A stretch of DNA of 64,000 nucleotides from Candidatus Latescibacterota bacterium (GCA_965207885.1 OZ242311.1:5408001-5472000); one strand, 5' to 3'; shown: positions 13,124 through 30,899, counted from the stretch's first letter. Numbers and translations are program-made. Notes: a model not told the origin generated them from the letters alone.

Positions 13124-13837
13124 CTACTCACACTTTTTCCCCACAAAAAAAGGACCCAGCGATTCGACATAAAGCGCGGTTTGCTGGGTCTTTCTCATAT
13201 CCTGCACAACGCGAGAGAGCGGATAGAGTTCTGCACCGATCAAACCAATGACAAAATCATTGTCATCGACATCGAGGCCATAGCTGGCCAGACGAATATC
13301 GTGCGCATAATCTTCGCGTCCATAAGCGCGTCCAATAGAAGCGTGCTCCATCAAAATTTTGCGCTGTTCCCTGTGATCGAGACGAGCAAAAGCCCCATTG
13401 CGACGCAGCGGGTACCAGATCGCCCAGGGCCATTCGGGATTGAGCACATTATCTCGCGGTCGGGTGATAAGGGCGTATTCGAGATCCGGCTCATAACCCG
13501 TGGCATACGTGCGCCCGAGCATCGTGAGTTCAGGACGGCGGGTACAGGCAGCGAATGGATCGCTATTGAGCAACGCACGAATATCCGTCACAAACAAATC
13601 CGGCGATTCCGTCAAAAAAACAACGCCAATGCCATAGGGATCTTGCACATCAAGATAGAGCGCAGCATCGAGATCACTTTGTTCCAGGGCTTGAGATACC
13701 GCACCAACATCCTTGACATCTGTGAAAACCTGCAACTGCATATAAAGCCGCCGATCACTCGTTTGCGGTTTCCCATCAGCAGGCGCACCGTGTTCGAGGA
13801 TATCGAGTTTTTCTTTTGATTCAGTAGAATGATGCAC
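13124..13837 (-). CDS. Chlorite dismutase family protein (coproheme decarboxylase-like)
   Basis: WYPLRR, ILMEHASIG, YGLDVDDNDFVIG, GPFFVG. Confidence 0.8.
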   Translation of the reverse strand: MHHSTESKEKLDILEHGAPADGKPQTSDRRLYMQLQVFTDVKDVGAVSQALEQSDLDAALYLDVQDPYGIGVVFLTESPDLFVTDIRALLNSDPFAACTRRPELTMLGRTYATGYEPDLEYALITRPRDNVLNPEWPWAIWYPLRRNGAFARLDHREQRKILMEHASIGRAYGREDYAHDIRLASYGLDVDDNDFVIGLIGAELYPLSRVVQDMRKTQQTALYVESLGPFFVGKKCE

Positions 13838-13965: not shown

Positions 13966-16167
13966 TCAAAAAAACGACAACTTGTAATGCGCTTTAAAAC
14001 TCCGCCCTGTTTCGGGCATCACGGATCGAATGCGCGAAAGATGATTGCGGTATTCCGTATCCAAAAGATTGTCCAAAGAGAGAATAATACTATGGCGGGT
14101 ATGGTCGGTATTAATGTCGCGCTGGGCATACACACCGAAAACAGCATAGCCATCCGTAGGCTCTTCAAATATATCCACACGCTCCTGTCGTGTAACAAAT
14201 TCCGCAGTCCCACCAACCGTAAGAAAGGGATGCTCATAAGTCGTACTTCCAACAAATTTGAACGGCGGAATCTCGGGCAGAGGCAAATGCTCATCCCGGT
14301 TCTCTCCACGCACATAACTGCCGTTCAATTCCAGATTCAAACGCGTATTCAAACGCCACCCCAGATGCATCTCCAGACCCAAAAATCGCGCAGCAACACC
14401 ATCGGCAGCGTAAATTGGCAGAAGTTGGGCAAAATTGATCTCTCCGGTATTGCGCGGGGCAATATAGGTATCAAACTCGTTCCAATATCCGCTCAAAACA
14501 AAATCGACGCCCGGTTGCAAATAGTGAAAAAAGACCTCAAAGCCCAGACTCGTTTCGGCCTCGAGATCGACATTGCCCACCTCAAAAGTGTAAGCAGCCA
14601 GATGCGGTCCATCGTTGTAAAGCTCTTCAATCGTGGGCACGCGCTGAGACCGGCTTAAGTTTAAACCTCCGGTCAGCCAATCAGTAAAGGACACAAGCGG
14701 GCTGATTGCCGCAGACCAGACGTGAAAGGTGCGATCTACATCGAGATCTGCAATGCTCTTTGTTCTTGGGCGCGGATCAAAGTCGGCATACGTATAACGC
14801 GCAGCAACCTGAAATTCGATGTGTCGATAGCTAAACTCGTGATAAAAACCAAGGTAAGCGTTTTGCTCTCGCGTGGGCGGCGTAAAAACAAACGCGCCCA
14901 ATTTGAGATGGTGGTGACCAAAGCCCAGGGACAGAACGGTATTTCGCGTCTGGCCCTGTGTGTTCATAAGCAATTTGAGATCACCGCGGTAGTCGTGGAA
15001 CAAAAACTCGGACCCAATATTACCGCTGGATTCGTACTCGAAGTGGTGATAGTAAGTCCTGGTAAAATCCACCTCTACACTACTGAACACCTGACGATCA
15101 AAATGGTATGCCGCCTTGCCATCAAATACCCGACGCTCAATATCCAGATCTACGCCATTGGGATGCCCGCCAATAAATCCACCGGGAATGCCGTATTGGG
15201 TCAAAAACTGATCAAAAGAAGCCCCGATATATCCCCGGTCAGTGGGATATGACAGACCGAGCGTATGCGTACGCGTTTCAATCGGTGTATTGGCGAGCCT
15301 ACCAATGGGGGTTTGCACATCTCGAGTATCGCGGTACGTGGTCTCGGCATACAGCGCAAGCGGCCCCACGGGCACTGTAATCCCAACGGCAGAGAGATAC
15401 CCCCGATTGACCGTCTCGCCATAAGCACCAACACTGCCAGAAACGCGCTGCGGATGGTATTCTGGAATCTTCTGTTTCACCACATTGATAACCCCACCAA
15501 TGGCCGATGCCGTGTGAAGCAGTATGCGCGGTCCCCGGATGATTTCGAGACGTTCTGAATTAAAAGGCTCAAGCGTAACAGCGTGATCGGCAGAAGTAGC
15601 GGAAAGATCGCGGGTCTCCATACCATCTATATTGATCTGCACGCGATCGCCACTAAGACCGCGTATAACCGGCCGAGCAGGTGCAGGTCCCATGCTGCGG
15701 ATGGCGACGCCGATTTCGTTTTTCATCGTCTCTGCAAGCGTGAGACTGTACTTCTTCTGAAGCTCATCTCCAGAAAGCACGCCAGTCGCTTCGTGCAATT
15801 CTTCAAAGCGGGTTTCCGCACTTTTCCCTACCACGTCAATGGTATCAATCTGGATCTCCCGGGCGACCATTTCGACGTACAGAATGGGCACTTTCTCATC
15901 CGAAACCCTTATTTCCCGACTCACCAATCCATACCCGACACGAAAAAAAGACAGACGATGAACGCCCTCCGGCAGATGAAAGATAAAACGGCCTCGTTCA
16001 TCGGTTGTCGTGCCCTCTGCGCCATCATTGACTTTGATATCAACATCGCCGATTGCGCGTTGGGTCTTGTGATCAAAAACATATCCCTCGAGCAATCGCG
16101 TCTCTTGAGATGCGCCGATCGCAAAAAAAAAGAACACAACAACCAAAAAAGAAGTCGTGAATCTCAA
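13966..16167 (-). CDS. TonB-dependent receptor, ZnuD-like, copy 1
   Basis: N-terminal carboxypeptidase-regulatory-like domain, RPVIRGLSGDRV, SADHAV, GPHLAAYTFEVG, YRNHLS, C-terminal F. TTG start after GGAG. Confidence 0.9.
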   Translation of the reverse strand: MRFTTSFLVVVFFFFAIGASQETRLLEGYVFDHKTQRAIGDVDIKVNDGAEGTTTDERGRFIFHLPEGVHRLSFFRVGYGLVSREIRVSDEKVPILYVEMVAREIQIDTIDVVGKSAETRFEELHEATGVLSGDELQKKYSLTLAETMKNEIGVAIRSMGPAPARPVIRGLSGDRVQINIDGMETRDLSATSADHAVTLEPFNSERLEIIRGPRILLHTASAIGGVINVVKQKIPEYHPQRVSGSVGAYGETVNRGYLSAVGITVPVGPLALYAETTYRDTRDVQTPIGRLANTPIETRTHTLGLSYPTDRGYIGASFDQFLTQYGIPGGFIGGHPNGVDLDIERRVFDGKAAYHFDRQVFSSVEVDFTRTYYHHFEYESSGNIGSEFLFHDYRGDLKLLMNTQGQTRNTVLSLGFGHHHLKLGAFVFTPPTREQNAYLGFYHEFSYRHIEFQVAARYTYADFDPRPRTKSIADLDVDRTFHVWSAAISPLVSFTDWLTGGLNLSRSQRVPTIEELYNDGPHLAAYTFEVGNVDLEAETSLGFEVFFHYLQPGVDFVLSGYWNEFDTYIAPRNTGEINFAQLLPIYAADGVAARFLGLEMHLGWRLNTRLNLELNGSYVRGENRDEHLPLPEIPPFKFVGSTTYEHPFLTVGGTAEFVTRQERVDIFEEPTDGYAVFGVYAQRDINTDHTRHSIILSLDNLLDTEYRNHLSRIRSVMPETGRSFKAHYKLSFF

Positions 16168-16185: not shown

Positions 16186-16225
16186 AAAAAGCCCCCACCC
16201 TGTGTCTAAAAGACCGGGTGGGGGC
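16186..16225 (-). terminator. Intrinsic terminator-like hairpin between lipoprotein and receptor, copy 1
   Basis: GCCCCCACCC...GGGTGGGGGC followed by a T-run on the minus strand. Confidence 0.75.
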
Positions 16226-16235
16226 AAAGCAGTTA

Positions 16236-16724
16236 CTACCCTCCGACATGCACGGGAATGGGAATCGTGCGAAAATCCACATGATCGTCGTGCGTGACCT
16301 GGAGCTCAATCGTAGTTTCGCCTACCTTGAGACCCCGCAGGTGAAAATCAAACTTGCCGACATCGTCGGCATCCTGAACAACTTCCAAAACCGTGGGATC
16401 GGCAATCGCCCATGTAAATTTGAAATCCGGATCATCTGGCGGGTCAATCTCGTCGCCATCTTCATCCAGAAAACGGATGCTCCAGTGCGACGTTTCCTCA
16501 TTGAGAGGGGCGTCGAGATGATCTTTCCGACCACCGCTGGCATCAATCTGCCCTCGAAAATAGCGGAAAAAACGATTGCCCGAATCTATGATAACCAGAC
16601 CCTCGGGTTCGAAATGCTCTTCCTGGTGTGACGTGGGATCGTCACTACCACAACCGATCACAAAGAAAGTCAGAACTGCCACAGCGGCAAAGGTGCGTTG
16701 AAAAGATTTTCTTGCAAAAAACAT
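16236..16724 (-). CDS. His/acidic lipoprotein, putative metal-capture partner of the receptor, copy 1
   Basis: RBS AGGAG; lipobox VIGC; SHQEEHFEPEG and THDDHVDF motifs. Confidence 0.8.
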   Translation of the reverse strand: MFFARKSFQRTFAAVAVLTFFVIGCGSDDPTSHQEEHFEPEGLVIIDSGNRFFRYFRGQIDASGGRKDHLDAPLNEETSHWSIRFLDEDGDEIDPPDDPDFKFTWAIADPTVLEVVQDADDVGKFDFHLRGLKVGETTIELQVTHDDHVDFRTIPIPVHVGG

Positions 16725-16846
16725 GATAGTCTCCTGAATAAGCCCGCACGGGCAGAGAACACAGAGAGAGGTCCTCTCATGCCCGCACAAAAAGGCACAA
16801 AAATACAGAAAAATAATGCAAACTTTAGTATTGAGATATTCAGTAT

Positions 16847-17125
16847 TCAGAAGACTACTGGAGGGGATCGGCCCTGAGGCAAAAGGAAAAATTGGTAGGA
16901 TAATAATGTAGCGTTCGACAGAAAATAAAACCAATAGACATATAACGCGCGAAAAATAACTATGGCACTGATAAGACCACAAAAGCTATAAACCCAATAG
17001 CAAACGAGGCAATGGATGTCATGGTCAACATGGTCAACCGCATGCCCAAAGGCAAGGGCAAACGCGCCGATGAACAATAGGGCGATCAGCCTTTTAACGA
17101 GCGGGTGTCTGAGGTAGAGATTCAT
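16847..17125 (-). CDS. DUF2946/CruR-like leader peptide (His-rich, CxxC, RSPP), copy 1
   Basis: Hydrophobic N-terminus, HAVDHVDHDIHCLVC, C-terminal PQGRSPPVVF; motifs conserved in copy 2. Confidence 0.75.
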   Translation of the reverse strand: MNLYLRHPLVKRLIALLFIGAFALAFGHAVDHVDHDIHCLVCYWVYSFCGLISAIVIFRALYVYWFYFLSNATLLSYQFFLLPQGRSPPVVF

Positions 17126-17225
17126 TTTTAATACTATATGGGGCTATCTCGAGCAAACATTTTCTGCTACAAGTGGCGTTGATCTTTTTTGCCTCTTAAG
17201 TTTAAAGATAGAACTTGACGCCAAA

Positions 17226-17261
17226 AAGAGCAAGCCCCAGATCAGTCTGCTGGTCTGGGGC
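17226..17261 (-). terminator. Terminator hairpin after receptor copy 2
   Basis: GCCCCAGATCAG-tctg-CTGGTCTGGGGC with a downstream T-rich tract on the minus strand. Confidence 0.65.
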
Positions 17262-17293
17262 GTAGTAAGGTTTTAGGATAACTGACCGCTAAA

Positions 17294-19495
17294 TTAAAAG
17301 AAAAACATCTTGTAATGCATTTTAATACTCCGACCCGTTTCGGGCATCACGGATCGAATGCGCGAGAGATGGTTGCGGTATTCCGTATCCAAAAGGTTGT
17401 CCAAAGAGATAATAATACTATGGCGGGTATGATTGGTGTTAATGTCGCGCTGAGCATAGACACCAAAAACAGCATAGCCATCCGTAGGATCTTCAAATAT
17501 ATCCACGCGCTCCTGTCCTGCGACAAATTCCGCAGTCCCGCCAACCGTAAGATAAGGATGCTGATATGTCGTGCTTCCAACAAACTTGAGCGGTGGCATC
17601 TCGGGCAGAGGCAAATGCTCATCCCTGTTCTCTCCACGCACATAACTACCGTTCAATTCCAGATTCAAACGCGTATTCAAACGCCACCCCAGATGCATCT
17701 CCAGACCCAAAAATCGCGCGGCAACACCATCGGCAGCGTAAATCGGCAGAAGTTGGGCAAAATTGATCTCTCCGGTATTGCGCGGGGCAATATAGGTATC
17801 AAACTCGTTCCAATATCCGCTCAAAACAAAATCGAAACCCGGTTGCAGATAGTGAAAAAAGACCTCGAAGCCCAGGCTCGTTTCGGCCTCAAGATTGACA
17901 TTGCCCACTTCAAAAGTGTACGCAGCCAGATGCGGCCCATCGTTGTAAAGCTCTTCAATAGTAGGCTCCCGCTGGGATCGGCTGAAATTGAAACCGCCCG
18001 TTAGCTGATCGGTAATGTTCACAAGCGGACTGATTGCCGCAGACCAGGCGTGAAAGGTGCGACCTACACCGAGAGCCGCAATACTCCTTGTCGTCGGACG
18101 CGGATCAAAGTCGGCATACGTATAACGCGCAGCAGCCTGAAATTCAATGTCGCGATAAATAAATTCGTGGTAGAGACCTAATGAAGCGCATTGCTCTCGC
18201 GTGGGCGGCGTAAAAACAAAACCCCCCAATTTGAGGTTATGATGACCAAAGCCCAGGGACAGAACGGTATTTCGCGTCTGGCCCTGTGTGTTCATAAGCA
18301 ATTTGAGATCACCGCGGTAGTCGTGGAACAAAAACTCGGACCCAATACTGCCGCTGGATTCGTACTCGAAGTGGTGATAGAAGGTCCTGGTGAAATCCAT
18401 CTCTACACTACTGAGCACCTGACGATCAAAATGGAAGGCCGCCCTGCCATCAAACACCCGGCGATCAATATCCAGATCTACGCCATTGGGATGCCCACCA
18501 ATAAATCCACCGGGAATGCCGTATTGGGTATCGAACTGGTCAAAAGAGGCACCGATATATCCCCGGTCAGTGGGATATGACAGACCGAGCGTATGCGTGC
18601 GCGTGTCAATAGGTGTGTTGACAAGCCTGCCAATAGGCGTTTGCACATCCCGGGTATTGCGGTACGTAGTCTCGGCATACAGCGCGAGCGGCCCCACAGG
18701 CACTGTGATTCCAGCGGCAGAGAGATACCCTCTATTAACCGTCTCGCCATAAGCACCAACACTGCCAGAAACGCGCTGCGGATGGTATTCCGGAATTTTT
18801 TGTTTCACGACATTGATAACCCCACCAATGGCCGATGCCGTGTGAAGCAGTATGCGCGGTCCCCGAATAATTTCGAGACGTTCTGAATTAAAAGGCTCAA
18901 GCGTAACCGCGTGATCAGCAGAAGTAGCGGAAAGATCGCGGGTCTCCATACCATCTATATTGATCTGCACGCGATCGCCACTAAGACCGCGTATAACTGG
19001 TCGAGCAGGTGCAGGTCCCATGCTGCGGATGGCGACGCCGATTTCGTTTTTCATCGTCTCTGCAAGCGTGAGACTGTACTTCTTCTGAAGCTCATCTCCA
19101 GAAAGCACGCCAGTCGCTTCGTACAATTCTTCAAAGCGCGTCTCTGCGCTTTGGGCGACCACCTCAATGGTATCCGCAACAATTTCCCGGGCAATCATTT
19201 CGACGTACAGAATGGGCACTTTCTCATCCGAAACCCTTATTTCCCGACTCACCAATCCATACCCAACACGAAAAAAAGACAGACGATAAACACCCTGCGA
19301 CAGACGCAAGACAAAACGGCCCCGATCATCGGTTGTTGTACCCACCGCGTCATCATCGAGTATGATATCGACATTGTCAATTGTGCGTTGGGTCTTGTGA
19401 TCAAAAACATATCCCTCGAGCAATCGCGTCTCATCCGACGCGCTGATCGCGGAAAAGCAGACCACAAAAACGAGAATGAAGGCTGTAAATCTCAA
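17294..19495 (-). CDS. TonB-dependent receptor, ZnuD-like, copy 2
   Basis: Same motifs and same length (733 aa) as copy 1; TTG start after AGGAGG. Confidence 0.9.
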   Translation of the reverse strand: MRFTAFILVFVVCFSAISASDETRLLEGYVFDHKTQRTIDNVDIILDDDAVGTTTDDRGRFVLRLSQGVYRLSFFRVGYGLVSREIRVSDEKVPILYVEMIAREIVADTIEVVAQSAETRFEELYEATGVLSGDELQKKYSLTLAETMKNEIGVAIRSMGPAPARPVIRGLSGDRVQINIDGMETRDLSATSADHAVTLEPFNSERLEIIRGPRILLHTASAIGGVINVVKQKIPEYHPQRVSGSVGAYGETVNRGYLSAAGITVPVGPLALYAETTYRNTRDVQTPIGRLVNTPIDTRTHTLGLSYPTDRGYIGASFDQFDTQYGIPGGFIGGHPNGVDLDIDRRVFDGRAAFHFDRQVLSSVEMDFTRTFYHHFEYESSGSIGSEFLFHDYRGDLKLLMNTQGQTRNTVLSLGFGHHNLKLGGFVFTPPTREQCASLGLYHEFIYRDIEFQAAARYTYADFDPRPTTRSIAALGVGRTFHAWSAAISPLVNITDQLTGGFNFSRSQREPTIEELYNDGPHLAAYTFEVGNVNLEAETSLGFEVFFHYLQPGFDFVLSGYWNEFDTYIAPRNTGEINFAQLLPIYAADGVAARFLGLEMHLGWRLNTRLNLELNGSYVRGENRDEHLPLPEMPPLKFVGSTTYQHPYLTVGGTAEFVAGQERVDIFEDPTDGYAVFGVYAQRDINTNHTRHSIIISLDNLLDTEYRNHLSRIRSVMPETGRSIKMHYKMFFF

Positions 19496-19509
19496 AACAT
19501 ACCTCCTAT

Positions 19510-19548
19510 AAAAAACCCTCATCCTGTGTCTGAAAGATCGGATGAGGG
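19510..19548 (-). terminator. Intrinsic terminator-like hairpin between lipoprotein and receptor, copy 2
   Basis: CCCTCATCC...GGATGAGGG with T-run; compensatory changes relative to copy 1. Confidence 0.75.
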
Positions 19549-19559
19549 CAAAGCAGTTA

Positions 19560-20048
19560 CTACCCTCCGACATGCACGGGAATGGGAATCGTGCGAAAAT
19601 CCACATGATCGTCGTGCGTGACCTGGAGCTCAATCGTAGTTTCGCCTACCTTGAGACCCCGCAGGTGAAAATCAAACTTGCCGACATCGTCGGCATCCTG
19701 AACAACTTCCAAAACCGTGGGATCGGCAATCGCCCATGTAAATTTGAAATCCGGATCATCTGGCGGGTCAATCTCGTCGCCATCTTCATCCAGAAAACGG
19801 ATGCTCCAGTGCGACGTTTCCTCATTGAGAGGGGCGTCGAGATGATCTTTCCGACCACCGCTGGCATCAATCTGCCCTCGAAAATAGCGGAAAAAACGAT
19901 TGCCCGAATCTATGATAACCAGACCCTCGGGTTCGAAATGCTCTTCCTGGTGAGACGTGGGATCATCACTACCACAACCGATCACAAAGAAAGTCAGAAC
20001 TGCCACAGCAGCAAAGGTGCGTTGAAACGAATTTCTTGCAAAAAACAT
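19560..20048 (-). CDS. His/acidic lipoprotein, copy 2
   Basis: Identical to copy 1 except one residue in the signal peptide (K/N). Confidence 0.8.
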   Translation of the reverse strand: MFFARNSFQRTFAAVAVLTFFVIGCGSDDPTSHQEEHFEPEGLVIIDSGNRFFRYFRGQIDASGGRKDHLDAPLNEETSHWSIRFLDEDGDEIDPPDDPDFKFTWAIADPTVLEVVQDADDVGKFDFHLRGLKVGETTIELQVTHDDHVDFRTIPIPVHVGG

Positions 20049-20172
20049 GATACAGTCTCCTGAATAAGCCCGCACGGGCAGAGAACACAGAGAGAGGTCC
20101 TCTTATGCCCGCACAAAAAGGCACAAAAATACAGAAAAATAATGCAAACTTTAGTATTGAGATATTCAGTAT

Positions 20173-20460
20173 TCAGAAGACTACTGGAGGGGATCGGCTC
20201 TGAGGTGAAAGGGAAAACTGGCGGAATAAAAATGTGGAGTGCGGCAGAGCGAAAAAACAACAGGCGTATAATGCACTCAAAATGACTATGGCACTGATAA
20301 GACCACTAAAGCTATAAATCCAATGGCAAACGAAGCAATGGGTGTCATGTTCATCATGGTCAACATGGTCAACCGCATGCCCAAAGGCAAGGGAAAATGC
20401 ACCGACGAGCAATATGGCGATCAGCGTTTTAACGAGCGGGTGTCTGGTGTAGAGATTCAT
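20173..20460 (-). CDS. DUF2946/CruR-like leader peptide (His-rich, CxxC, RSPP), copy 2
   Basis: HAVDHVDHDEHDTHCFVCH ... PQSRSPPVVF. Confidence 0.75.
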   Translation of the reverse strand: MNLYTRHPLVKTLIAILLVGAFSLAFGHAVDHVDHDEHDTHCFVCHWIYSFSGLISAIVILSALYACCFFALPHSTFLFRQFSLSPQSRSPPVVF

Positions 20461-20519
20461 TTTTAATACTATATGTATATGGGGCTACCTCGAGCAAAAA
20501 TAGTTGTCTATCAATGCGC

Positions 20520-20972
20520 CTATTTGTCCCCTGCGGAATGCGCTCGCAATTGTCTAATCGATTGCAATCGCAAAAGCAGCTTTTCGAGATTTGATTTTAG
20601 CTCTTTTTGGATCTCGACCATTTGCTCGGGCGTCACCTGTAGATTTTCTTTTTCGCCATGGTGTTCATGGCCGTGATCATGGGCCTCTGCCGAGTCATCT
20701 CCCGGCACTTCAACCACATTTTTTTCCCACAATTCAAAGTCTTTTTCGATAACCTGAAGACTATCGCGTATATCCACAGCATGATGTGAAAATGACTTCA
20801 GGCTATCCAGTTGGTTCTCAAATTGCTCTTCAATTTCCATCATCGCCTTGTGAATATCCGCCGCCTGTTGCAAGTGGTGTGCATCTTCTTTATTTTCTCC
20901 ATGGCAAGAAACAAAGAACGCAAACATTATAACACTTATCACTTTGAGCCGCATTGGATTTTGTCTCTCCAT
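20520..20972 (-). CDS. His-rich helical lipoprotein, putative metal binder
   Basis: Lipobox-like FVSC; AHDHGHEHHG loop. Confidence 0.75.
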   Translation of the reverse strand: MERQNPMRLKVISVIMFAFFVSCHGENKEDAHHLQQAADIHKAMMEIEEQFENQLDSLKSFSHHAVDIRDSLQVIEKDFELWEKNVVEVPGDDSAEAHDHGHEHHGEKENLQVTPEQMVEIQKELKSNLEKLLLRLQSIRQLRAHSAGDK

Positions 20973-21000
20973 ATCTTACGTCTCCTTTCGCGTGTTTATC

Positions 21001-21399
21001 CTATTTTTCACAATCATCTTTGCGACATAAATGATGATTCCGAATATGGCCTGAGATCAAAAATCCCGACCCAAAAACGGTCCCCACCCGTTCCCCTATT
21101 TCCCCAAAAAGATCATGGCCAACCATAACCATTATGACGAGAAGGGACAGCCCGAGGATACCGAAACCAATGACAAATTGATCTTTATGACGGCGACACC
21201 CCAATCCAAGAGCAAGAATGCTGGTGGGCAGAATCAGCCACATCAAAAGCCCATGAAAATGTTCATCGCCAACAAATGTAGTAGCCAACAACGGAAACGC
21301 AATAAGTGCAACAGGCAATGTCAAACAATGGATCGCACACATTGTTGAAAGAACAATGGCGATTTTATCACCTGCGGTTTGATAGCTCAAACGCGCCAT
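21001..21399 (-). CDS. MerC-domain membrane protein
   Basis: DKIAIVLSTMCAIHCLTLP, HGLLMW, GCRRHK, GHIRNH; four transmembrane helices. Confidence 0.85.
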   Translation of the reverse strand: MARLSYQTAGDKIAIVLSTMCAIHCLTLPVALIAFPLLATTFVGDEHFHGLLMWLILPTSILALGLGCRRHKDQFVIGFGILGLSLLVIMVMVGHDLFGEIGERVGTVFGSGFLISGHIRNHHLCRKDDCEK

Positions 21400-21434
21400 T
21401 TATTATCTCCTTCTTATTCATAATAACGACACAA

Positions 21435-21965
21435 TTAATATGTATCACCAGGATTGTTTTTCATATCGCGCTTATCCATCACCTCGGCTTTGCTGATGCG
21501 AAAAAAGAGTTCGGAAGGATCTTTTTGCAACAATTCCAGACGACCTGTAATAGTAACGGGATAATAAGTAAAATCAATCGGTTTGCTCGGGTGAACATCT
21601 ACAAGAGACTCAGGCCCACCTCCGCCTACACAAAATGAACAGCCCCCAAGTGAATACGGAGTCAAAACAAAACGCGCCTGTTTTTTTTGAGCCGATAGCG
21701 GAATCATAAACCCGACAAGCTCGACGTGTTTGCCATTCATTTTTTTCAACGTATCGGAAAATATGGGTATAAAGGTTGGCGCATAGGGATCATAACTCAC
21801 CGTCGCAAGGGTTTCCCAAAGCGACCCCTTCATCATCTGGGGCAATGGAGACGCCTGAAGTTCTGGGCGATGGTCTAATGACGAGGGCGGTGCCTCACTG
21901 CCAGTATCTATTCTCAAAACCACAGCAAATAACAAAATAAACATTACCGTGCGTTGTATATTCAT
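21435..21965 (-). CDS. DUF3299 family protein (ZrgD-like)
   Basis: WETLA, NGKHVELVGFMIPL, FVLTPYSLGGCSFC, VTITGRLEL. Confidence 0.8.
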   Translation of the reverse strand: MNIQRTVMFILLFAVVLRIDTGSEAPPSSLDHRPELQASPLPQMMKGSLWETLATVSYDPYAPTFIPIFSDTLKKMNGKHVELVGFMIPLSAQKKQARFVLTPYSLGGCSFCVGGGGPESLVDVHPSKPIDFTYYPVTITGRLELLQKDPSELFFRISKAEVMDKRDMKNNPGDTY

Positions 21966-23239
21966 CACGATACCTCCACAAGTGTTTGTGCAACATCTGT
22001 CCGATAGACCTGAAGCGCCGGTATAAGAGCCGATACACTACCCAACACAAGCGCCAGACCAATGAGCCAGAATTCATCGGACAAAATAATCCATCCCGTC
22101 AAATTTATATGCTGTGCCTCGCGCACCCATGCGCCAATCACCTCAGTGCTGGCATGCCCAAGCACAAAGCCCAATCCCGTACCCATAAATGTAAGCAAAA
22201 CCCCCTCCAAAAGCACCTGAACAAAAAGTTTGCCGCGACTTGCCCCCAGAGCACGCATCATAGCCAGATCGTATCGCCGATCTTTCATCGCATTATAAAG
22301 TGCCACAAAAATGCTCAACGCCGCTGCAAACACCAGAACCCCACCAAAAACCCGCACCACCTCCAACCCAACACCGAGCAATGCAAAAAGGCGCGTTGTC
22401 TCAAATGCGGGGGACGCAGCCTGAAATTTGGTCTCTTTATTAACATACCTCGGAAATGACACGGCTGCAATAGGTGAACGATAGCGAATCAACAAACCCG
22501 TAACTTCGCGCTCGGCATCGGCTTCACTGTCCATCGGCAAACCGAGAACATCGCGTGCGCGATTCTCATCGGCCTGGCTCTCCAGGTGGTGATCCAGTCC
22601 ATCGCCCTCTTCTTCATGCGGTTCGTGAACCAGCCAGACCGTTTCCACAGCAGTCAGTAACAGACGATCGATAATCGAACCCGTTGGTTGCAAAACACCC
22701 ACCACGCGAAACGGTTGCGATTCGTGTTGTTCAGAAGCTGTTTCTGCGGTCAACCCATGCGAACTAATAACCTCATCACCCAGTGCAAGACCCGTCTCGC
22801 TGGCAACCTGCGCGCCTATAACCACCTGGTATGGCTCATCCCAAAAGGTACCATCAACCAATTCCGCCCGGTAGTGTTTGGCGTATGCGGATGTCGTTCC
22901 CACAATGCGATATCCCCGATAATTATCCCCCAATGCCAGAGGTATCGCCTGTGCAACCGCTCTGTTTTTTGCCAGTTCACGCGCCTCTAAAAGCGGTATA
23001 TTTCCCGTTGGCACATCAACGTGAAAGACACTGGATAAAATCAATTGCAAAGGACTGCCCTTAGCCCCCACAACGACATCGATATTTTGAACATTTCGGT
23101 GCAAATTCTCTTCAAATTGTTCGCCAAAAAGCAACAAAACAACGACAATACCCGTTCCAAGTCCCAACAATATCATATTGAGCAATGTATTCAACTTGCG
23201 CCGATAAATATAGGCCAGACTAATTTTGAAAAGATTCAT
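21965..23239 (-). CDS. FtsX/MacB-type ABC permease (ZrgC-like)
   Basis: VVGAKGSPLQLILSSVFH, ALGDNYRGYRIVGT, RRYDLAMMRALGA; His-acidic loop. Confidence 0.88.
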   Translation of the reverse strand: MNLFKISLAYIYRRKLNTLLNMILLGLGTGIVVVLLLFGEQFEENLHRNVQNIDVVVGAKGSPLQLILSSVFHVDVPTGNIPLLEARELAKNRAVAQAIPLALGDNYRGYRIVGTTSAYAKHYRAELVDGTFWDEPYQVVIGAQVASETGLALGDEVISSHGLTAETASEQHESQPFRVVGVLQPTGSIIDRLLLTAVETVWLVHEPHEEEGDGLDHHLESQADENRARDVLGLPMDSEADAEREVTGLLIRYRSPIAAVSFPRYVNKETKFQAASPAFETTRLFALLGVGLEVVRVFGGVLVFAAALSIFVALYNAMKDRRYDLAMMRALGASRGKLFVQVLLEGVLLTFMGTGLGFVLGHASTEVIGAWVREAQHINLTGWIILSDEFWLIGLALVLGSVSALIPALQVYRTDVAQTLVEVS

Positions 23240-23889
23240 GTGGGCAATTCCACCTGTTCATCGAGCGCAATACAATGGTCAAAACTATCGGTAATGCGAT
23301 GATCATGTGACGCCACCACCAGAGTTGCCTGAACCTCTCGCGCCGATGACGTGAGCAAATCCAACACCTGCTTGCTGCGCGCGTCATCCAATCCAGATGT
23401 CGGTTCATCGGCCAACAGCAATTGGGGGCGGTTAACAACAGCCCGGGCGATTGCCACGCGCTGTTGTTGACCAAAACTCAGTTCCGATGGATAAGCGTGT
23501 TCGCGACCTGCGAGACCGAGAGCCGCAAGCACCTGTTGGACACGCGCTTTGTCCTGCTGTACACCGGCCATATAATGCGCCATAAGCAAATTTTCCAGCA
23601 CCGTAAAAACCGGGAACAGGTGAAATTGTTGAAAAACAATGCCAATGCGTTGCCCGCGAAATCGATCGCGAGCGGTCTCTGTCATTGCATAAATATCCTG
23701 TTTGGCAATATGCACACTGCCCTGTGAGGGCTTTAACAAACCGGCGATAATATGCAAAAGCGTCGTCTTCCCGCTTCCCGATGGCCCGTGCAACAGCCAT
23801 TTTTCATCGGGCTGGGCCTCAATATATTCTGGCAAGTCCAATACAAGACGACTGCCATAAACATGCCCAACGTGTTTAAGTACAAACAT
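23236..23889 (-). CDS. ABC ATP-binding protein (ZrgB-like)
   Basis: GPSGSGKT, LSFGQQQRVAIARA, LLADEPT. Confidence 0.92.
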   Translation of the reverse strand: MFVLKHVGHVYGSRLVLDLPEYIEAQPDEKWLLHGPSGSGKTTLLHIIAGLLKPSQGSVHIAKQDIYAMTETARDRFRGQRIGIVFQQFHLFPVFTVLENLLMAHYMAGVQQDKARVQQVLAALGLAGREHAYPSELSFGQQQRVAIARAVVNRPQLLLADEPTSGLDDARSKQVLDLLTSSAREVQATLVVASHDHRITDSFDHCIALDEQVELPT

Positions 23890-23969
23890 GAGATAGTATT
23901 CAAAAAATGCGATGTGTGACTTCTAAATGTTACGAGGCCGTCAAAATCGAGCGGATGAGGCAGTTTCGG

Positions 23970-25190
23970 TCATTCTGACTCCTCAACCATTTGAAGCTCC
24001 GGAAACGGGTTCCGGAACCCTGCCCAGGTCTTGCTGTTAGCGGAGGCGAGGCGCTCGTCGAGCAGGCATGCATCGAGGCGAGCGCGCATCGCCGCCTCGT
24101 GCATCTGCTGGCCGATGAAGACGAGTTGTTGCGCGCGATCGCCGAAGCGAGGATGCCAGTCCGGCTGCTGGTCAGGTCGCCGACCCTCGGGGTGCCCCCA
24201 GTGTTCGCGAGGCACGGCCGCCCACCACATCCCAACGGGGTTCACGTTGATGACGCCGCCGGCTTGAGACCACTCGTAGAGGATCCGATGGTCAGCGGCG
24301 ACCCAGAAGAAGCCCTTCGAGCGGAGCACGCCGCTCCAGTTCTCGGCGTCGTGCAGAAGTGCCCACAGCTTCTCGGCGTCGAAGGGCTGCGACGTCCGAT
24401 AGGTGAAGCTCGAGATCCCGTACTCCTCAGTCTCCGGCGTGTGCTCACCCTGAAGCTCTCGAATCCAGCCGGCGGAGTGCGCCGCCTTCTCGTAGTCGAA
24501 CAGGCCCGTGTCGAGCACGCATTTGAGAGGAACCTCTCCGTGCGTCGCCATGAGGACCTCCGCGCCGGGGTTGAACGCTTTCACGATCGCCTCGACCTCG
24601 AGAGCCTGATCGTCGCTCACGAGATCGAGCTTGTTCAGCACGATGACGTCGGCGAACTCGATCTGGTCGATGAGCAGGTCGGTCACCGTCCGGTGATCTT
24701 CTTCGCCCAGCGACTCACCCCGGTCTTGGAGCGCCTCGGCGGCGTTGTAGTCCCGCAGGAAGCTCGCCGCGTCCACGACTGTGACCATTGTGTCGAGGCG
24801 CGAAACCTGACCCAGGCTCACACCGTTCTCGTCCTCGAAGGTGAAGGTCTGCGCGACGGGAATAGGCTCCGAGATCCCCGTGGACTCGATGAGCAGGTAG
24901 TCGAAGCGTCCCTCCTGCGCGAGCCGTGAGACCTCGGCGAGCAGGTCGTCTCGCAACGTGCAGCAGATGCAGCCGTTCGACATCTCGATCAGCTTCTCCT
25001 CGGTCCGCGAGAGTTCCGCACCGCCGCGCTCAACGAGCGTCGCGTCGATGTTGACCTCGCTCATATCGTTGACGATGACCGCGACGCGCATGCCCTCGCG
25101 GTTGTTGAGCACGTTGTTGAGTAGAGTAGTCTTGCCTGCGCCGAGAAAGCCGGACAGGACAGTAACGGGAAGTCTCTCTGACAAGGGCAC
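23970..25190 (-). CDS. zigA: COG0523 zinc metallochaperone GTPase, ZigA/ZagA-like
   Basis: [56 protein letters not shown]. Confidence 0.88.
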
Positions 25191-29466: not shown

Positions 29467-30116
29467 CTCAGCGAATTCGGCAGGAGGTCTGGCCGACGTG
29501 TGACCAACAGCCGTACAATGCCGACGGAGGCGACGGCTTCAAGAACCGCCAAGGGGATCTGGACAGGGGCAAACCCGAGCAGCACCGCGGCGAAGGTCGT
29601 CGCAGGCGCCGTCACATCGGACAACGCCACGGCAAGCACCGCGGCGTCTGCCACATATACGCTCAGGCCGCCGACGCCACATGCGAAAGCGAGGCGAAAA
29701 GCCCCGTCTATACCGAGCCGCCGGAGCAAAGCCCAAAGCCCAACGGTCGTCAGAGGCCCCAGCAGTCCGAGCGTCAGGGTGTTGACCCCCAGCGTCGTGA
29801 GCCCGCCGTGAGCGAAGAAGACCGCCTGCAGCAAGAGCACGAAGAACGTGGGCCACACGATGCGGCGGACGCCGACAACCAGGGCGAGCACCGGCGTAAG
29901 GCAGATGTGACTGGTTGCGCCCACGACGGGGACTGGTAGCGGTAGCAGAGTGCCGGCAAAGAGCAGGCTCGTGGCGCCCGCCATGATGACCGAGGACGAC
30001 GGTGTGTTGCGTCGCGTTCGTTGCTCTTCACGAAGGCTCCAAAAGACAGTGGGGGCGGCCAGGGCACTCCACGCGATGGCTTGGCTGAGCGGAAGCACAC
30101 CTTCTGATAGATGCAT
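29436..30116 (-). CDS. cbiM: ECF cobalt/nickel S component CbiM; 5' part of the interrupted fusion
   Basis: N-terminal MHLSEG metal motif, TSHIC, LLLQAVFFAHGGLTTLGVN, FAPVQIPLAVLE. Confidence 0.88.
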   Translation of the reverse strand: MHLSEGVLPLSQAIAWSALAAPTVFWSLREEQRTRRNTPSSSVIMAGATSLLFAGTLLPLPVPVVGATSHICLTPVLALVVGVRRIVWPTFFVLLLQAVFFAHGGLTTLGVNTLTLGLLGPLTTVGLWALLRRLGIDGAFRLAFACGVGGLSVYVADAAVLAVALSDVTAPATTFAAVLLGFAPVQIPLAVLEAVASVGIVRLLVTRRPDLLPNSLSVSWRKSFSI

Positions 30117-30550
30117 CAGCCCCCTCCTTGATGTTGATGTGATGCCGCATTGCCACACGCATCACAGGTTCCGAGCAATACCACCTCATGTCCCGTCATC
30201 TGAAACCCGTCTGGAACCAGAGAATCGAGGCCCTCGACGCAACCGAAGAGGTCAAACGCGTGGTCGCAGGTCGAGCAAAGAAAGTGATGGTGATGCTCGC
30301 GGTCCTTGGGCTCGTACCGAACGCCGCGGCCCAACCCCTCGACCGACTCCAGCGTGCCTTCCTCAACACCCCGTTGGAGCGCGCGGTATACCGTGGCGAG
30401 ACCGACACTCTCTCCGCTTCCGCTCAGGCGGCTCCACAGTTCCTTGGCGGATAGGGGGCCGTCCGCTTCGCTAAGGGCTCGCAAGACGGTTAGCTGCTGC
30501 TTCGCTCTTTGCTGCTGCTTCGCTCTCTGTTGTTGATTTACTCTTTGCAT
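30116..30550 (-). CDS. Fur family regulator (Zur/Nur-like)
   Basis: GLATVYRAL, HHHHFLCSTC, GTCDAC; 18 nt tandem repeat (QQQRAK x2) at the N-terminus. Confidence 0.9.
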   Translation of the reverse strand: MQRVNQQQRAKQQQRAKQQLTVLRALSEADGPLSAKELWSRLSGSGESVGLATVYRALQRGVEEGTLESVEGLGRGVRYEPKDREHHHHFLCSTCDHAFDLFGCVEGLDSLVPDGFQMTGHEVVLLGTCDACGNAASHQHQGGG

Positions 30551-30585
30551 GAAGAAATGATAATCAATTCTCACATTACTGTCAA
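30551..30585 (-). promoter_or_regulatory. Leaderless sigma-70 promoter with overlapping Fur/Zur-type box
   Basis: TTGACA, 17 nt, TATCAT, 6 nt, ATG. Dyad TGAGAAT-TG-ATTATCA overlaps the spacer and -10. Confidence 0.75.
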
Positions 30586-30899
30586 GACTTAATGGGTGAC
30601 TACTCCCAACACTAAAGCTGTTGGGTTTTACGGGCTTTTCGGATAAAACCGTACACAACGGGTGCATCAACGACCCGAAATGACGGCAGATGGTTGAGAA
30701 AACAGATCAAACGCAGAAAGGACGATCAAACAACCGGCAGGGAACTGCCTTGAACTGACCTCTGAAAGTCAATCAATGTTCATATTCATTTACAAATATT
30801 TACAGGGAACCCAACCGCCCTTCACAATGTTTAATTTAGACAAATGCCATAAACGGTTATATTTTGACGTGTCTCGGATAGCAAAAAAGGAGTGATCCA

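Follow-up and report, generated by a model that had tools for sequence, protein, structure and literature searches.

To our knowledge, metal-sensing arrest peptides have so far been known only for copper, in the form of CruR and CutF, and the regulation of bacterial zinc uptake is usually ascribed to repression by Zur. CruR (Bp2923) of Bordetella pertussis, as outlined in its report (PMC9426467), is encoded by a small open reading frame (ORF) that stands first in its operon and carries an export signal, an invariant CxxC, an R-x-P-P motif (RAPP) three residues from the C-terminus and a long spacer before a TonB-dependent receptor gene. The metal relieves the arrest and thereby turns the acquisition genes off, the output being Rho-dependent termination. 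In the account of CutF from Rhodobacter capsulatus drawn on here, which is a member of DUF2946 (10.1101/2025.02.05.636593), an exported peptide carrying a Cys motif (CxxxC) stalls, while still nascent, at C-terminal prolines (PPP). This stall is brought on by copper; the halted ribosome opens a stem-loop shielding the Shine-Dalgarno sequence of the next gene, and a detoxifying oxidase is turned on. ApdA, ApdP, ApcA and SecM are also small secreted or membrane peptides, encoded before a regulated gene and ending near an RxPP-like motif, and are described as monitoring Sec or YidC activity (PMC12992588). In the present work, two leader ORFs of this general layout were analysed in a 64,000-nt stretch of Candidatus Latescibacterota bacterium (GCA_965207885.1 OZ242311.1:5408001-5472000), taken from a 6.2-Mb assembly; the whole stretch is called the window, and all coordinates are window positions. 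With a probability of about 0.6, these leaders are cis-acting zinc-responsive arrest peptides of the CruR/CutF (DUF2946-like) kind, in which the stalling, the binding of zinc and the sign of the response are predicted.

The leaders head two duplicated cassettes encoded, like all the features mapped below, on the minus strand, and each cassette runs from the small leader ORF through a spacer (124 nt in cassette A), a lipoprotein gene and then a hairpin followed by a U-run to a TonB-dependent receptor gene. Leader A (95 aa, 20173..20460) and leader B (92 aa, 16847..17125) follow the same plan: a hydrophobic N-terminus forming the first helix (Kyte-Doolittle peak 2.5-2.6, residues 13-27), a His cluster, CxxC, a second hydrophobic stretch forming the second helix, RSPPVVF and the stop. 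In leader A, the metal-ligand stretch from H28 to C45, HAVDHVDHDEHDTHCFVC, lies at 20326..20379 and the RSPP codons CGA TCC CCT CCA, the predicted arrest site, at 20185..20196; leader B has a shorter His cluster and CxxCY, with its RSPP codons at 16859..16870. A sequence-only reading of this region had proposed two duplicated ORFs of 92-95 aa with this plan, each heading a lipoprotein gene and a receptor gene and differing from the other in His number (a DEH indel, CxxCH versus CxxCY), and all of this was confirmed on the minus strand, the lipoproteins having the lipobox VIGC and the receptors being TonB-dependent. It also held up that the linker is the most diverged part of the leader, with 40/60 identical bases between the copies against 54-59/60 in the adjoining blocks, the motifs and the frame being kept and the indels staying in frame. 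That the copies are tuned differently, as was further suggested, is hinted at by the fact that the window leaders represent two old paralogue types, long-His and short-His, which are both kept across the genus, several genomes retaining the two together.

The leader ORFs are conserved and coding, as the sequence-only reading had maintained. Close homologues number 12 among 5.8 billion proteins, all ending in R[SA]PPV; searched with a profile, 1.84 billion representatives yielded 16 hits. Within the phylum, the leader profile matches 68 of 168 Latescibacterota genomes, distributed over 18 of 49 genera with at most three copies per genome, and in the own genome it recovers the two window copies only; other small ORFs of this genome ending in RxPP-like motifs, when searched for, proved to be noise besides the two leaders. 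None of 41 database homologues has a Pfam domain, and the sole name given to any of them is 'hypothetical protein' (3/41). Among 21 aligned copies from the genus, every length change is in frame, including repeated [DE]H-type insertions before CxxC, and the ratio of nonsynonymous to synonymous substitution rates (dN/dS) amounts to 0.42 overall, with 0.09 in the His/CxxC stretch, 0.22 in the tail, and 0.53 and 0.62 in the hydrophobic stretches. In a 73-member alignment no variation is seen at C42, R89, P91 and P92 and almost none at H28, H32 and C45 (C45 being kept in at least 90%). RxPP lies no more than nine residues from the C-terminus in all 73 members (RAPP in 44, RSPP in 27 and RGPP in 2), followed by three residues (VVF) in both window leaders and by two or three in 45 of the 73. 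The CxxC-to-RxPP spacing is 43 in the window copies and, among 34 members measured, 42 in 18, 43 in nine, 46 in four and 41 in one, the remaining two values (23) being artefacts of a second CxxC. In addition, the third codon positions of R-S/A-P-P differ between lineages, which argues for selection on the peptide. The two window leaders alone have a dN of 0.16 and a dS of 0.18, so that the pair on its own shows no constraint, as would be expected of chance open frames in non-coding leader DNA; such an origin deserves practically no credence, since it is refuted by the frame and motifs kept in 68 genomes, the exclusively in-frame indels and the low ratio of the ligand stretch.

Some copies depart from the common plan. 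A 53-aa leader copy (L006:9305-9466) has lost, through an in-frame deletion, all of the His/CxxC stretch together with portions of the two helices; because the N-terminus, RSPPVVS and the 5' arm of the RNA helix described below are retained, it can be considered a natural sensor-less variant. In L046, one leader copy is extended to 167 aa and has RASR instead of RAPP.

The structure predicted by AlphaFold from the 73-sequence alignment consists of a helix at residues 8-34, a loop at 35-42, a helix at 43-83 and an unstructured tail, with a mean pLDDT of 78.8. A fairly confident two-helix hairpin of this kind, joined by a short ligand-bearing loop, also fits a stable inner-membrane protein with a periplasmic His/Cys metal site, acting in trans as uptake part, chaperone or sensor and using its RxPP end for another role, and the retention of both hydrophobic segments throughout the family points the same way. 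Nevertheless, we consider such a protein unlikely. The helices are the least constrained parts of the leader and the ligands and the tail the most, and an invariant RxPP held at a fixed distance from CxxC and placed 1-9 residues before the stop is a hallmark of arrest peptides in the sources consulted (PMC9426467; PMC12992588). Moreover, the same ORF heads receptor, ZnuA/B, FolE2 and ABC-FtsX operons, and a machine part would not be expected where one small ORF heads functionally unrelated operons. Two tandem leader ORFs before one operon, found in other genera in L048, L063, L064 and L073 (and also in L046), likewise speak against it.

The arrest-peptide reading draws on the likeness of the leaders to DUF2946 (PF11162). 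The features given for this family in the CruR report are an export signal, CxxC and a 45-residue spacing conserved to within 1-2 (PMC9426467), and counterparts of each are present in the window leaders: R6 and K11 followed by the hydrophobic stretch within the predicted first helix, the invariant CxxC, a spacing of 43 that falls within the CruR-type range, and the position as first gene before a metal-homeostasis operon with a long spacer (about 124 nt here). RAPP itself, which prevails in the wider family, is replaced by RSPP in both window leaders. The CruR-like layout recognised beforehand, with CxxC, RxPP and the position before a TonB-dependent receptor, was found again, RxPP lying three residues from the end and the spacing being 43 against 45. 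CruR differs in that it responds to copper, ends in RAPP, has 145 aa and lacks a His cluster, whereas the leaders end in RSPP, have 92-95 aa and carry one; furthermore, the stretch between the two motifs is described as poorly structured in CruR and is modelled as a hydrophobic helix here. A DUF2946 gene of Caulobacter, CC2720, also heads an operon, czrCBA, according to a table entry (PMC4176598).

The family relationship was judged by a member-by-member PF11162 scan of 73 relatives, of which 43 match at E <= 1 (best 2.6e-5), the next commonest family being matched by 6/73; where individual alignments are listed, they cover the part from CxxC to the end. Pfam and NCBIfam scans of both window peptides gave no family, and the only PF11162 match of the own genome, being single, weak, unrelated and interrupted by an internal stop, was rejected. 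A kinship with DUF2946 was thus upheld by the relatives and not by the window peptides themselves, which stay below threshold. From these comparisons, the leaders are best classed as a divergent DUF2946-like branch and not as a formal member, because the Pfam threshold (gathering score 23.7 bits) is missed and yet 43 relatives match.

Regarding the motif, the RAPP survey published in 2025 places RSPP among the most under-represented tetrapeptides of bacterial proteomes, reports its recovery in E. coli arrest screens and finds an Ala-to-Ser change in the RAPP of ApdA and ApdP to be partially permissive for arrest, while in the in-vitro arrest of CruR residues three and four of the motif occupy the P and A sites (PMC12992588). 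The proteins collected in that survey were those with RAPP and RGPP, and its main text does not contain the word 'zinc'. Literature searches that combined DUF2946 with zinc, and arrest or leader peptides with znuA or the homeostasis of zinc, and that covered CruR, CutF and DUF2946 since 2023, found no zinc-responsive leader of DUF2946 or RAPP type, the Caulobacter czrCBA entry mentioned above being the sole near match.

A possible output of the arrest was found in the RNA. When the region from the leader 3' end to the lipoprotein start is folded, a long-range helix appears in both the minimum-energy and the centroid structures (z -2.5 and -3.9), in which GUAGUCUUCUGAAUA, comprising the final three codons, the stop and a few bases, is predicted to pair with UAUUCAGGAGACU in the Shine-Dalgarno region. 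In cassette A, the 5' arm of this putative masking helix (final three codons, stop and 3 nt) lies at 20170..20184 and the 3' arm, TATTCAGGAGACTGT, which is the Shine-Dalgarno region of lipoprotein gene A, at 20052..20066; in cassette B, the predicted arms lie at 16844..16858 and 16726..16740, the latter being the Shine-Dalgarno region of lipoprotein gene B. A helix of 12-15 bp can be formed in all 21 lipoprotein-heading copies of the genus, despite the inner spacer being rearranged, replaced or deleted, and pairing is kept with the 5'-arm variants GUC/GUU and UUC/UCC (F to S) and with one C-to-U change in the 3' arm. For other lineages, duplexes between leader tail and ribosome-binding site were computed in short windows around the stop and start codons. 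Over 18 leader/next-gene pairs, the cognate duplexes have a mean of -17.3 kcal/mol compared with -14.1 for non-cognate ones, and 0 of 5000 permutations were as low, a figure which overstates independence since the pairs come partly from related lineages; with one value per genus, counted by hand, 10 of 12 are better than the median duplex. In these lineages the 5' arm is part of the R-S/A-P-P codons or follows them closely, and in L063 a like architecture with unrelated arm sequences covers both the Shine-Dalgarno sequence and the start codon (z -3.2). By our estimate, a pause of the ribosome at the prolines would keep the 5' arm open.

An unconstrained duplex search over 288 nt gave loop-ridden and uninformative pairings and was not used. 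An intrinsic terminator in the leader-lipoprotein spacer was considered and rejected, as its GCCCG/CGGGC stem has only 4 bp and its U-run is weak; it is also disfavoured by the replacement or deletion of the inner spacer in related loci. TGTACA or TACA is seen just 5' of the CAGGAG Shine-Dalgarno sequence in the spacers of L006_2, L007, L008 and L012 and in the ribosome-binding regions of L046-L049, L053, L060, L063 and L074, in some loci as TTTACA-N8-TGTACA, and may be an operator or a part of the ribosome-binding site. Neither leader start codon is provided with a Shine-Dalgarno sequence (20461-20519 and 17126-17290; both GTATTAAAAATG), and the genes behind the leaders have strong CAGGAGA sites. 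Copy A has, in addition, a 6-nt CATATA duplication just 5' of the leader start.

The gating foreseen in the sequence-only reading concerned the lipoprotein-receptor pair, and the prediction stands for its first member. A terminator-like GC-rich hairpin with a U-run lies 3' of each lipoprotein gene (19510..19549 in cassette A and 16186..16225 in cassette B), ahead of the receptor genes A (17294..19495, probable TTG start at 19495) and B (13966..16167, probable TTG start at 16167). It is present in 21/21 cassettes, and T-A to C-G changes on both sides preserve its pairing, so that the receptor gene would be reached by read-through only and direct gating is predicted for the lipoprotein gene alone. 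The hairpin is probably a partial terminator setting the lipoprotein-to-receptor ratio.

At the transcriptional level, the only Fur-family gene found in the genome (30116-30670, about 10 kb upstream) scores weakly with the PerR, Fur and Zur models alike and heads a CbiM-ECF-CobW-WD40-ZigA cluster. Because this gene heads the zinc-type cluster, transcriptional control probably coexists with leader control, and the idea of leaders replacing Zur was left aside as unsupported. Sigma-70-like promoters (TTGAC[AGT], 16-17 nt, TATA[TC]T) are found directly 5' of leaders in other genera, some of them so near the leader that the mRNA would be nearly leaderless; a consensus promoter scan found none directly upstream of either window leader, and k-mers surveyed in 32 upstream regions pointed to no operator common to them. 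The presence of the helix and of the Fur-family gene, together with promoters that could carry operators, would also suit a constitutive translational-coupling device, in which any ribosome finishing the leader opens the helix, the Fur-family repressor is the only source of zinc control and the His/Cys residues are not a sensor. This we hold to be quite unlikely, for such a device would need no 90-aa membrane peptide, and it leaves unexplained the invariant CxxC, the conserved His, the 42-43 spacing and RxPP, as well as the borderline DUF2946 match of the family.

The metal concerned is indicated by the genes behind the leaders. In a neighbourhood survey of 30 diverse loci with 35 leader ORFs, in which 70 downstream ORFs were scanned against Pfam, a receptor, ZnuA/B or FolE2 was found behind the leader in 25 loci. 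A CarboxypepD_reg-Plug-barrel TonB receptor is encoded in 15 of them, usually after a protein made of 1-6 domains of the window-lipoprotein type, ZnuA and/or an ABC-3 (ZnuB-type) permease in 8, behind a second protein family of unknown kind, and MerC with FolE2, a zinc-independent GTP cyclohydrolase, in 2; the other 5 were uninformative, including one with a leader copy before a HEAT-repeat gene. In the window genus, the order leader-lipoprotein-receptor is found in 13/13 loci, and in L009 and L010 a second leader copy stands directly before ABC-FtsX-DUF3299. Receptor A, with the CarboxypepD_reg-Plug-barrel arrangement, has ZnuD as its best solved relative (4rdr, E 5.5e-37) and as its top NCBIfam family (NF038289; 225.5 bits, below the cut-off of 950), and by these matches the receptors are ZnuD-like and not equivalogs, while the ZigA encoded at 23970-25190 scores above its cut-off (NF038288; 623.9 bits against 600). 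Since the genes behind the leaders represent the classic zinc-starvation set, the best candidate for the signal is zinc, with cobalt or nickel also conceivable, and the neighbourhoods of the homologues favour zinc over copper, in line with the earlier suggestion of Zn, Co or Ni.

That the leaders sense copper, as CruR and CutF do, or cobalt or nickel, instead of zinc, appears decidedly improbable. CxxC is a classic Cu(I) motif, the characterised DUF2946 members are all copper-responsive in the accounts drawn on, and the C-terminal part of receptor A weakly resembles the copper receptor OprC (E 1e-9); genes for CobW-family GTPases and for a CbiM-type ECF transporter are also found nearby. The downstream genes, on the other hand, encode ZnuA/ZnuB, FolE2 and ZnuD-like receptors, with ZigA adjoining, and copper genes (PCuAC, YcnI, PepSY, multicopper oxidase) were not found behind the 35 leaders examined. 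Furthermore, the extra conserved His residues complete a His2Cys2 set, which is typical of zinc sites. The same gene content, namely TonB receptors, ZnuABC, FolE2-type paralogues and COG0523 GTPases, is known from Zur regulons, for instance in Caulobacter (PMC4176598), where control is exerted by a DNA-binding repressor and the parts of that report used here describe no zinc leader-peptide mechanism.

If the leaders are zinc-responsive arrest peptides, the ribosome translating them would pause with the RSPP prolines at the catalytic centre. At this point helix 2 would fill the exit tunnel, and the two conserved His and the CxxC, 43 residues back, would have reached the end of the tunnel or the site of membrane insertion. 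The ligand cluster would owe its placement at the tunnel exit during arrest to the constant spacing of 42-43 residues, most of them in a hydrophobic helix. The paused ribosome would cover the final three codons and the stop, otherwise paired with the lipoprotein Shine-Dalgarno region. With zinc scarce, a long pause would leave the ribosome-binding site open and the lipoprotein gene would be translated, the receptor gene being expressed through read-through of the hairpin and relief of polarity. With zinc present, the His2Cys2 site would bind it, the nascent chain would compact or be pulled and the pause would end, whereupon the ribosome would terminate, the helix would re-form and expression would fall. 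Such a mechanism would join the logic of CruR, with the same sign (metal relieves the arrest and the uptake genes go off), to an output which is not the Rho-dependent termination of CruR and matches that of CutF, a stem-loop masking the ribosome-binding site. A sign opposite to that of CutF is expected because the downstream genes here are uptake and zinc-sparing genes.

A bolder version, to which we would give somewhat less than an even chance, is that the leaders are natural 'nascent-chain zinc fingers', whose His2Cys2 site would form co-translationally as the ribosome reaches RSPP, the folding force releasing the arrest. Phylum-wide, the zinc-starvation genes (receptors, ZnuABC, FolE2) might then be mainly arrest-run, on top of or instead of Zur, and tandem, long-His and short-His leaders might set different zinc thresholds. 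In an engineered ADR1a zinc finger-SecM force sensor, zinc-dependent folding near the tunnel exit reportedly releases arrest; that sensor is an artificial construct, whereas the leaders are natural membrane peptides with a putative zinc site.

Several observations weigh against reading the leaders as zinc-responsive arrest peptides, besides the hairpin model discussed above. Neither window peptide matches PF11162 at E <= 1, and PF11162 is above its cut-off in 0/168 phylum genomes, the best score, 22.5 bits, being that of a RAPP copy from the same genus. RSPP is not depleted in the long ORFs of the genome (27 seen, 28.2 expected), whereas RAPP (0.35) and RGPP (0.33) are, tetrapeptide depletion being a crude proxy and the long ORFs including spurious frames; given this absence of depletion, RSPP arrest may be weaker and context-dependent here. 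As for the masking helix, its changes within the genus are all one-sided and wobble-compatible, with no two-sided compensation, and transitions opposite G retain pairing by default. Moreover, two of the 18 pairs, L050 and L070, both with uncertain start codons, pair worse than the non-cognates, and leaders before the ABC operon lack a masking helix (L009, z -0.65). The terminator-like hairpin separates the lipoprotein gene from the receptor gene, the leader copy L057 precedes genes without a metal link, and the Fur-family regulator of the same cluster could alone supply zinc control.

Parts of the cassettes are present in contigs of four runs labelled metatranscriptomic. A near-identical RNA-library contig (1 mismatch) comprises leader A with 76 nt of spacer, and one from a relative spans leader, spacer and lipoprotein gene. 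They are weak evidence of expression, as such contigs may stem in part from DNA and give no information on the ends or levels of transcripts, read depths and uncovered stretches being equally uninformative, which also tells against the proposal. Phylum DNA is present in runs labelled sponge and marine metagenomes.

Regarding the remaining parts of the cassettes, lipoprotein A (162 aa, 19560..20048) has the lipobox VIGC and a His/Glu-rich tether, behind which an Ig-like beta-sandwich is predicted (pLDDT 80), and a search with this fold gave generic Ig-like matches only; lipoprotein B (16236..16724) is 99% identical to it. Each corresponds to a single unit of a domain (about 130 residues) that lacks annotation and is found in 1-6 copies in proteins preceding receptors elsewhere (L046, L064-L066 and others). 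A further protein family, the second one of the survey (about 370-440 aa), precedes ZnuA-ZnuB in nine loci. The two cassettes form a mosaic: spacer and lipoprotein gene have 58-60/60 identical bases per block, six consecutive blocks being identical at 60/60, and the receptors range from 42 to 60 of 60. Near-identical lipoprotein genes and spacers lying between diverged leaders and receptors suggest that gene conversion has acted only on the central part of the cassette.

Upstream of cassette A, the region 20520..25190 provides a zinc-type context with the ZigA GTPase, an ABC ATPase, an FtsX permease, DUF3299, a MerC-like protein and a His-rich 150-aa protein. Beyond ZigA follow genes for a WD40 protein, a second CobW-family GTPase, an ECF ATPase, CbiM and the Fur-family regulator (30116..30670). 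The segment 24001-30000, which holds ZigA, the WD40 protein, the second CobW-family GTPase, the ECF ATPase and CbiM, has about 62% G+C compared with about 50% around it. On the other side, a chlorite-dismutase/HemQ-like gene (13124-13837) comes after the receptor cassette, as it also does in L007, L008, L012 and L013.

If the proposal is true, a zinc-responsive leader would constitute a second, post-transcriptional route of zinc-uptake control, and regulation of the CruR/CutF type would extend from copper to zinc. The family offers natural variants for its study, with RSPP, RAPP and RGPP ends, His clusters of different length, a sensor-less deletion and tandem copies, and the predicted masking helix is easily mutated. 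It would also give a name to a widespread and hitherto unannotated small protein family in an uncultured phylum.

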